A DNA stretch of 63,102 nucleotides, counting the filler, from Bipalium vagum (taxonomy: Eukaryota): the NCBI GenBank assembly GCA_037834085.1. It is 3 parts of 3 records of this genome, joined end to end, with 100 filler letters (N's around TTAATTAATTAA, not from the genome) between each part and the next. Parts side by side here need not be neighbours in the genome. Positions count along the whole stretch, not along the records: positions 44,197 to 63,102 come from JBBMKC010015724.1; 2 more parts are not named here. One strand, written 5' to 3'. Position numbers and translations under genes: made by a program. Position 1 is the stretch's first letter; each line of letters opens with the position of its first letter. Below, in pieces: positions 47,988 to 50,517 of the stretch. The notes under the pieces are model-generated. The model was given only the letters and a program-made list of their open reading frames with translations, did no database searches and was not told where the DNA came from.

Positions 47988-48315
47988 TTAAGACCGCATA
48001 TTGTTATGAAAGTTAATGATCACATCGTATTAGCACTAATAGACGCTGGTGCTCAATCCTAAACTATTCATCATGCATTGTTGACGGAAATGGAAAGGAA
48101 TACCATGAATTTTCAATCTATAACAGTTTATGGTGTTGGTAATTCACCATATATCATGATGGAAACATTCAAAAGTATTGTTACCTTATTGGATTATACT
48201 TTCCAACATGAATTTTATGTCGCATATGATAATCACGAAGTTGTGTCCTTGGAATGGATATATTATTAAAAATTCCACGTGTTATATTAGACATTGCTGC
48301 AAAACGTTTGTATGT
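47988..48315 (+). pseudogene. Retropepsin-like aspartic protease, copy 1 (stop + frameshift)
   Basis: RPHIVMKVNDHIVLALIDAGAQS ... VYGVG ... GMDILLKIPRVILD. Confidence 0.8.
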
Positions 48316-48639
48316 TCCAGCTTATGCCACTACGGATGGAGATAATTCCACATTCAGTTCGGAATCTTCACTACCATCATTCGAAGAAGTTTTTGGTGTA
48401 GATGAAGATTCAGTCATGTCAACATCCGCAGCTAGTTATCATGAATTATATCCACGACAGCAGAATTCTCGTCCAGTTATGCAAGTAGCCCCTATGCCCG
48501 CAACAGTTGATACATCTTCGCAAGCCAGTACTATGAGGCATTTCTTAAACGAAATAGCCAAAGTAGGACAGTGCTTTGCCTTAGGCATGACCAAAGAAGA
48601 AACTTTTGATCAACTTGCACAAACATTACCCGTACTATT

Positions 48640-49355
48640 CACAGTACCGGACCAACATGGGGATACGCCTCTCCATAGTGCTATCTTACGAGGTAATGCT
48701 CATCGAGCAGTAGAAATCATTGAAATAATTAAAGATTCATACAGATGGGTTTTAGAAAGGGAAAATAAATTTTGACATACTCCTCTTTTAATGACATCCG
48801 CATGTCAAGCACCCGTTAGTCTAATTAACCTCTTAATACCTCTTTTCATTTTTATAAAAAGATATTTAAAAAATAAAATAGTCAGTTACTTATGAAACAC
48901 CCTGTACAATACCGTTGTCATATTGATAGATAGGACAAAGCAGGTAAATCTATAGTAGATCATGCTATTGATGACCAAAACGAAGAAATAATGCATTATC
49001 TTATGACACAAATTCGACATCAACATTTACCCCAAATGTTTCAATGTTATGGTTACAATTACCAAACCTCTTTACATTATGCAGTAGTCACAAATTTTAC
49101 AGAAGATGTCAAATTAATCACTGAACTAGTTGGTATCGATTTAGAATATATGGCAGATGTGAACACAGCTGAGATTCTTAGAGATGAAACTCCCTTACAT
49201 CTTGCAGTCCGATTTAATACCTATACGGAAATTCTTAAAATATTACTCAGAAGATCTGATATTAATATTTATATAACAAATGAAGATGATAAAACGGCAT
49301 TACAGTTAGCCCAAGATAAACAAGCAGTTGATATGGTCGATTTACTCTTAGAAGC
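48640..49355 (+). pseudogene. Ankyrin-repeat array, IkB/Cactus-like
   Basis: DQHGDTPLHSAI, NKF*HTPL, DKAGKSIVDHA, YNYQTSLHYAV, ADVNTAEILRDETPLHLAV, NEDDKTALQLA...MVDLLL. Confidence 0.85.
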
Positions 49356-49503
49356 AGAATTTGCTGTTGGCAATAATATTGCACAACTGCTACATATCAC
49401 TTCTAATCTAGAAGCATTAATGGATTCAGACGAGGAATCTCCAAATAATCCAGATCAGGCACCAAGCGTCAGTTGCCTGCGAAGTCTACAATTCCGAAAA
49501 GAA

Positions 49504-50517
49504 ACAAGACCGGTGTTGAATATAAAAGTCAATAAGCATACTGCATATGCAGTAATTGACACAGGAGTCCAAACATCTTTAATTGATGTCATAATATTGA
49601 ATATCGCTGAGCAAGAAGCTATTAACACCCGACCTGTTTCAGTAGTTGGGGTAGATGGCAAGTCAGTTTCTCTTATTGGAACCTGTAGATGCATTTTACG
49701 TATCATGGGACATGACATTGATCATACTCTTAAAGTGATGAAAGATAACGAGATGGAATGCATCATAGGAATGGATGTGTTATCCAAAATTCCTGGTCTC
49801 ATATTAGATTTCGCCACACATCAATTAAAATTCATTCACGAAAGAAAACGTCGAACTATAAAAGTTGATGACAACGTAGCAGTCGTTTTAGATAATACCG
49901 TTATCCCACCCAGACGAGAACAAACTTACGAAAACGATCTTAAAACTTGTTTAACTTCATCGCCGATTTTGCGATATCCCGATCCGAAATGTCAATTCGA
50001 ATTAATGTGTGACGCAAGTGGAAGACGAAACGGTAGAGATTATGCCATTGCATATGCTAGCAGAAGTTTGAAGCTACACGAAAAACACTATGCAGTTATA
50101 GAACTTGAGTGTTTAGCTATTATTTTTGGTGTGACCAAATTCCGAACTCATTTATGGGGTCGAGAATTTGTTGTCTACACGGATCACAACCCACTAGCTT
50201 ATCTAGAAAAACATCGAGACACATCTTCTCGTCTCATTCGTTGGGCTTTGAAATTACAAGAGTATAACTATAAAATCATCTACCGCAAAGGCAAAGCTAA
50301 CGCTAACGCCGATGCGTTATCTCGAATGCCAGAAGTTTGTCTGTTGAACAACTTAAAATCCGTAAATAATAAAATCGTGTTAAAAAATATAATAAACAAT
50401 GACCCTGAAATACAAAAAATTAGAACATATATTATTGATCCCACACTAGCACAACACACACCATATTCAAAAAATTTGCAAAAATACCACTGGGAGGATG
50501 ACATGCTAATATATTAA
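49504..50517 (+). pseudogene. pol: pol: retropepsin copy 2 fused in frame to RT connection/RNase H (RT core deleted)
   Basis: AVIDTGVQTS, IIGMDVL; then LKTCLTSSPILRYPD, CDAS, IAYASR, ELECLAI, YTDHNPL, ANANADALSR. No YxDD RT core. Confidence 0.9.

Follow-up and report, generated by a model that had tools for sequence, protein, structure and literature searches.

LTR retroelements normally encode a single protease. Ankyrin repeats are already known from Burro elements, and in relatives of the element described here the segment after the canonical protease has been termed dUTPase-like (both in the available text of PMC6431247). In the planarian nidovirus PSCNV, the ankyrin repeats are reported to have been taken from host RHD-ANK genes, and IkB mimicry was proposed (available part of PMC6211748), and the immune role of the planarian RHD genes is given as unsettled in the accessible portion of PMC13563047. 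The HIV-1 and PEG10 proteases no longer dimerise and are inactive when Ala replaces Thr/Ser at the grip position (PMC7212762, excerpt), and two tethered active copies of the protease block HIV particle formation (PMC8537868, excerpt). Multiple Burro proteases are not described in the literature covered, which included part of PMC13524379, nor did we find there a separate class of accessory proteases or an RHD-ANK/NF-kB origin of the Burro ankyrins; Grohme et al. (2018) or the Repbase report may cover these points.

We analysed two proteases, PR1 and PR2, that flank an ankyrin (ANK) module in DNA of Bipalium vagum (assembly GCA_037834085.1). The window, the whole stretch of DNA analysed, comprises 63,102 nucleotides. 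We predict, with a probability of roughly 0.6, that the locus is a dead member of a Burro-like, multi-copy gypsy family whose ordinary protease, preceding reverse transcriptase (RT), underwent an old duplication around an ankyrin cassette inserted between the copies, with PR2 serving in maturation, the ankyrins serving as an IkB decoy and PR1 weakened.

The element and its surroundings

The window has a GC content of 20-37% and is AT-rich and eukaryote-like. A decayed Ty3/gypsy element occupies positions ~44300-54200, a remnant of ~10 kb with deletions, with all of its features on the plus strand in the order gag, zinc knuckles, ubiquitin-like ORF, PR1, ankyrin module, PR2, RNase H, integrase and 3' ORFs. 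The gag capsid region (44339..45170) is broken and its Retrotrans_gag match (E 0.0015) is under the cut-off; tblastn aligns it with the gag of relatives P0127 and P0129 (E 1e-10 and 7e-12). The nucleocapsid (45192..45764) has CCHC zinc knuckles (zf-CCHC, E 5e-7) and, in translation, an Asn-rich repeat. It is followed by an ORF with ubiquitin/SUMO-like domains (45761..46786), for which the Rad60-SLD match is weak (E 0.013) and a homologue was identified in residues 397-546 of P0075 (E 5e-10), and by an acidic linker and helical ORF recognised from the translation (46735..47702). A remnant of env was not found when the env proteins of P0246 and P0087 were compared with the window by tblastn (no match at E 0.1).

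The upstream flank of PR1 (47877..47987) has homologues in P0074 and P0081, where it flanks their single protease. PR1 itself (47988..48310) is a diverged duplicate of a canonical retropepsin, and is followed by an acidic, Ser-rich linker (48311..48520) ending in a PVMxVAP motif that also lies upstream of ANK in L001, P0125 and P0240. Next are the ANK module (48521..49356), PR2 (49504..49830) and a stub of the post-protease region (49831..49929), over which tblastn matches of P0121, P0085 and P0127 extend to ~49920 and which has no Pfam match. RNase H (49930..50265; RT_RNaseH, E 7e-27) has a short internal deletion. The integrase (50518..51580) retains the H2C2, core and C-terminal parts in broken form (Integrase_H2C2, E 7e-21; rve, E 7e-11), and its core is 56-66% identical to those of clade members (see below). 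In the translation downstream of the integrase (51690..52500), beta-rich domains lie between two hydrophobic segments; by eye it resembles the tails of P0080, P0087 and P0246, with no family match. The last feature is an accessory ORF (52887..53795) that matches exonuclease-type accessory ORFs of loci L001 and L002 by tblastn (E 2e-6 and 1e-5), and is a diverged homologue of them. In those two loci the exonuclease-like ORFs lie after pol (L001 6861-9920; L002 7268-10371), and in each locus a single one of them matches RNase_T.

Lacking is RT: PR, RNase H and integrase occur in Ty3/gypsy order, no RT match was obtained within the element, and relatives carry RT. At 49929-49936 the post-protease region and the RNase H connection are joined directly in one frame. 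One contig that starts at 49936 has 57 unplaced letters before it, and so other copies differ at the RT site. Also lacking is an LTR pair, sought among the 20 largest repeat families and by self-BLAST; a run of N lies at 44097-44196. This run and another at 26529-26628 carry an artificial spacer with stops in all frames.

Other features of the window were recorded in passing. A short RT-like fragment (23882-23989) is positionally unrelated to the element. A DNA_pol_B_2 remnant (54466-55167), which we take to be of Polinton/Maverick type, lies directly after it, and a weak DDE_3 transposase remnant precedes it on the minus strand (42930-43663). An ORF with a START domain (40393-40890) is probably a host exon. 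The arms of a long inverted repeat (4843-5934 and 19532-20553) are 82-89% complementary and ~14-15 kb apart, and a diverged direct duplication (58394-59757 and 60276-61591) has a spacing of 1.83-1.88 kb. Tandem arrays with periods of 8, 27 and 32 bases occur from 14930 onward, at 16558-16692 and at 20031-20136.

A clade with extra proteases

A search with PR2 returned 44 proteins, several with two to four protease domains and a mononegavirus-type fusion protein (Monjiviricetes_fusion) between gag and pol. Within the best 120 of 772 matches to the integrase, 15 are 51-100% identical to the query. The window integrase and 14 clade proteins form one clade (support 0.999; P0122 was represented in the tree through P0246), and in-frame env is found in clade members P0080, P0087, P0118, P0120, P0127, P0129 and P0246. 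With its SUMO-like domain, ankyrins and in-frame env, the clade fits the published account of Burro, a group of giant gypsy-like LTR retrotransposons of planarians (PMC6431247). Among the same best 120 of 772 matches, two or three proteases occur in 8 of the 15 clade polyproteins vs. 2 of the 105 other gypsy matches, where some of the remaining clade proteins are truncated and one of the two outside cases is visibly two merged elements.

The 24 extra proteases form a class of their own (SH 0.94 in the tree of 63 domains; SH-aLRT 93.8 in the reduced set), and 21 of them keep D[T/S]G. In P0126 the order is integrase, protease, degenerate protease, ANK and protease; L001 and L002 share it as far as ANK, and in P0242 a protease with DTG runs almost directly into ANK. 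Locus scans for ANK returned two loci from 303 candidates and one from 90, none with the PR-ANK-PR-RNase H order of the window. A homologue search with ANK plus PR2 yielded 68 generic ankyrin proteins and no element, and the corresponding Atlas search (best score 0.89) yielded ankyrin clusters only.

Two proteases are also present in the gypsy polyproteins P0083, P0086 and P0089, one of them from Caenorhabditis nigoni, and in P0086 and P0089 they follow an env-like match; thus, the doubling may have arisen more than once. P0075 has four protease domains and P0098 two (each on a contig of length 21743), which would make six if they belong to one element. The Burro-like polyprotein P0087 is filed under a Flavobacteriaceae metagenome-assembled genome, probably through contamination.

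Two related proteases in different states

The sequence-only reading had described tandem paralogous aspartic proteases with common motifs at both ends, and these motifs are indeed present. PR1 begins at 47988 with LRPHIVMKVN...IDAGAQ and PR2 at 49504 with TRPVLNIKVN...IDTGVQ; the ends are GMDILLKIPRVILD and GMDVLSKIPGLILD. The two domains are paralogues: BLASTP aligns them with 24 of 81 residues identical and no gaps (E 1e-13), and over 108 aligned columns they are collinear and 34% identical. The word tandem is loose, given that ~400 codons of linker and ANK separate them.

PR2 is an intact canonical retropepsin with an open frame and the catalytic motif DTG at 49558-49566, and exceeds the Pfam cut-offs for RVP (23.9 bits) and Asp_protease (31.9 bits). 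PR1 has DAG at 48042-48050, as had been read, and so departs in the window copy from the D-T/S-G motif that PR2 retains. A stop (48060-48062) and a frame break (near 48231-48233) interrupt its frame in this copy. In the comparison with protease models that had been suggested, the N-terminal part of PR1 matches the same families as PR2 below the cut-off (E 0.007-0.03). A six-frame scan of the window with a retropepsin HMM built without any window sequence recovered PR2 (81 bits, E 2e-26), the initial portion of PR1 (35.7 bits, E 2e-12), the tail of PR1 weakly (E 0.047) and one chance match. Against the PDB, phmmer with PR1 returned only the protease of EIAV (E 0.58), and a single-sequence fold of the N-terminal part of PR1 (pLDDT 65) had no PDB match at E 0.001. 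Motifs resembling cleavage sites precede 23 of 45 protease domains vs. a 25% background, by a pattern defined after the sequences had been inspected, and similar border motifs lie upstream of both window proteases.

The long branch of PR1 (1.3 vs. 0.5), its DAG and its scores below the Pfam cut-offs could be taken to mean that PR1 has no function and is left over from the ANK insertion, persisting only because it lies in the reading frame. We consider this improbable. PR1 shows no in-frame indel relative to PR2 over the 108 columns and keeps 15 of 21 conserved columns, comparable figures being 16 of 22 for PR2 and 7-8 of 21 for degenerate accessory domains. Nucleotide identity between PR1 and PR2 at codon positions 1, 2 and 3 is 50, 66 and 38%, vs. 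28, 29 and 30% expected, so that second positions stand far above the saturated third positions. Only 3 of 12 four-fold sites are identical, and synonymous sites are saturated. The codon pattern indicates that PR1 was under protein-level selection in the past, and the saturation that the duplication is old.

Origin of the upstream protease

The sequence-only reading had proposed that the two proteases arose by internal duplication, and placement, a shared residue and flanks all support this. In the best tree of 63 protease domains (FastTree, SH supports; SH-aLRT for the reduced set), PR1 and PR2 are sisters (SH 0.81), and both lie inside a group with P0073 and P0074 (0.98). Gln after the catalytic motif, common to PR1 and PR2, is found in only 4 of the 63 domains. 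The C-terminal dimer strand of PR1 scores 1.01 to canonical and -0.43 to accessory domains. Over residues 1-36 of PR1, six other domains outscore PR2. The upstream flanks of PR1 and PR2 both match the single-protease relative P0081 (residues 6-70 of which align by tblastn with 47937-48140, 40% identity, E 8e-9), and the usual downstream region follows PR2 only. Pieces from P0081, P0073, P0252 and P0076 show one protease with a PR1-type upstream flank and a PR2-type downstream flank; this single-protease relative is a composite of four short fragments and not one record.

The tree check favours the sister relationship and stops short of proving it. In an AU test that took in 48 of the 63 domains (15 rows were dropped), the best tree again has PR1 and PR2 as sisters, and neither placement of PR1 within the accessory class (p=0.138) nor placement outside the trio of PR2, P0073 and P0074 (p=0.41) is rejected. 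The first of these results would allow PR1 to have come in with the ANK cassette as an accessory-class protease, part of which PR2 later overwrote by gene conversion; its sisterhood with PR2 would then be mere appearance. Consistent with this, a protease-like domain is the nearest recognised domain upstream of ANK in five of the six element-borne relatives with enough context (P0125, P0126, L001, P0242, and P0236 via its overlap with P0115; in P0238 it is ubiquitin instead), and a 41-nt stretch near the 3' ends of PR1 and PR2 is 80% identical. Against it, the AU test rejects grouping of PR1 with the ANK-flanking proteases of P0125 and P0126 (p=0.011) and with those of P0246 and P0115 (p=0.038), canonical-type signatures are present at both ends of PR1, and synonymous sites are saturated. 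We therefore regard gene conversion as unlikely. PR1 thus has the look of a new copy of the canonical enzyme and not of an accessory-class member.

An architecture of the family

One public DNA run carries the stretch, and is possibly the source of the window itself; no RNA run is among the matches listed. The contigs of this run that fall on the element number 3927, and 2476 of them are less than 95% alike. In the bins for PR1, the linker, the second ANK and PR2, depths add up to 1400-2900, vs. 18-36 for listed single contigs; these sums do not represent copy number. One contig, ~84% alike, spans 48268-48697, from the end of PR1 to the first ANK repeat, and another, ~87% alike, spans 49107-49519, from ANK to the PR2 flank and its first codons. 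Diverged contigs thus share the PR1-ANK junction and the junction of ANK with the PR2 flank, and we conclude that these belong to the architecture of the family and do not reflect a nested insertion.

The same contigs bear on the proposal that PR1 derives from an unrelated nested element with boundaries of its own, or that the order is an artefact of assembly. In favour of it, decay of the window copy is heavy, and the PR1-ANK-PR2 region is affected by deletions in some other copies. However, the junctions recur in diverged contigs, no flanking repeats around PR1 were reported in the repeat survey of the window, and PR2 is the closest to PR1 of the 62 other domains. This explanation is largely refuted and we give it very little weight.

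Some of the damage is confined to particular copies. The frame break in PR1 is missing from a contig of high depth, and contigs that cover position 48773 do not share the ANK stop there; those breaks are therefore not family-wide. Among 40 of the 1926 variants, none lies at the catalytic codon or the stop of PR1. Our rough judgement leans modestly towards DAG being a feature of the family over decay of the window copy.

The ankyrin module

The ANK module comprises a pre-ANK helix and about six repeats, recognised by Ank profile matches. It is broken by stops at 48773 and 48931 and by an extra AT-rich stretch at ~48836-48906. By tblastn it matches the element-borne P0125 and P0126 (E 9e-32 and 3e-39). 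A search with the ANK of P0126 identified 11 proteins among 3280 candidates. One of these relatives, P0244 of Dendrocoelum lacteum, is named BCL3-1 in UniRef and has an N-terminal RHD (Pfam E 0.003; Atlas 0.91, TM 0.61). Despite its label, it is an RHD-ANK protein resembling an NF-kB precursor. P0235 has a basic motif at its start and a weak Death match at its end (E 0.055).

The pre-ANK helix is common to all ANK relatives and the window (30-35% identity), and the window ANK lies on a long branch. Comparison of helix and repeats establishes, at the level of protein similarity, that the window ANK is homologous to the ANK of a planarian RHD-ANK protein. In the PDB, the best match to a profile of the ANK family was BCL3, with Notch only slightly behind. 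The same family occurs at 10001-10201 of L003, a viral contig of 41,178 nt with an open frame of 5513 residues. The ANK tree did not resolve donor or direction.

A possible route and proposed roles for the two proteases

Template switching is a route of gene capture. During reverse transcription, a switch to a co-packaged relative carrying an ANK cassette, with re-entry behind the protease, would have copied the protease twice, with PR1 retaining the upstream flank and PR2 the downstream flank. PR2 would most likely be the maturation protease, cutting the polyprotein at domain borders, and ANK would most likely be freed as an IkB-like decoy for a host factor of Rel/NF-kB type. PR1 appears to have kept its fold under selection while evolving faster, and has most likely been weakened or disarmed. 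A chain with two compatible active proteases would process itself too early, which such a loss would prevent.

The sequence-only reading had instead raised a heterodimer of the two copies, an altered specificity, or a protease-ANK fusion aimed at a host substrate. PR1 might then be a working partner, either dimerising with PR2 within one chain or once freed from it, or remaining attached to ANK as a targeted protease. The retained catalytic Asp, GMD helix and dimer strand agree with such a role, as do the 21 of 24 accessory domains with D[T/S]G in relatives and the near-direct fusion of a DTG protease to ANK in P0242, which makes a protease-ANK fusion protein possible on domain order. An active PR1:PR2 heterodimer is less likely, because the HIV-1 and PEG10 enzymes fail to dimerise with Ala in the grip (PMC7212762, excerpt) and tethered active copies are harmful in HIV (PMC8537868, excerpt); these data weakly oppose the heterodimer and the altered specificity, and the loss of two conserved glycines from PR1 also speaks against a working partner. 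Overall, we find a working partnership rather unlikely and prefer PR1 as a weakened copy.

Implications and comparison with known systems

The window copy is dead, and its value is as a record of one rearrangement only. A natural clade whose polyproteins hold two to four protease domains, most of them with intact catalytic motifs, provides a system for testing the timing of retropepsin activation and for asking whether protease paralogues avoid or use heterodimers. Tracing the ankyrins to planarian RHD-ANK provides a concrete hypothesis for a domain that has no stated origin in the available text of PMC6431247, and bears on whether planarian Rel proteins act in immunity. A broader proposal, which we hold to be doubtful, is that Burro-like elements are multi-protease retroelements with a second, separately evolving protease class, which the window family would have re-invented by duplicating its canonical enzyme. 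The extra proteases might serve a captured NF-kB inhibitor domain, either through a separate schedule of release or fused to it and aimed at a host Rel factor, and RHD-ANK might be a real anti-parasite hub whose module was also taken by the planarian nidovirus.

The element resembles Burro/GYPSM1 in its gag with CCHC knuckles, its Ubi2/SUMO-like domain (a weak match, E 0.013), its ankyrin repeats and its accessory ORFs (PMC6431247, available text). The same text names one protease and no origin for the ankyrins, whereas the window copy has two canonical-type proteases around ANK. Burro/GYPSM1 elements are 25-30 kb long with LTRs (PMC6431247, available text), compared with ~10 kb and no LTR found here, and carry env in frame between gag and pol; the window copy has no env, although its relatives in the integrase clade do. 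We use Burro-like, and not Burro, since env and giant size are absent and the match was made to a description and not to a named Burro sequence.

With PSCNV the element shares its ANK family, if L003 is that virus, as its size and content suggest. Unlike the element, PSCNV is an RNA virus with a 3C-like protease and no flanking retropepsins, and its ANK is 25% identical to that of the window. The planarian RHD-ANK proteins, represented by P0244, have the same pre-ANK helix and repeat register; the element carries the ANK half only, without the RHD, in broken form and ~30% identical. Engineered tethered HIV-1 dimers likewise place two retropepsin domains in one polyprotein (PMC8537868, excerpt). 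Those dimers are artificial, identical, directly linked and harmful, whereas PR1 and PR2 are natural, 34% identical and ~400 residues apart.
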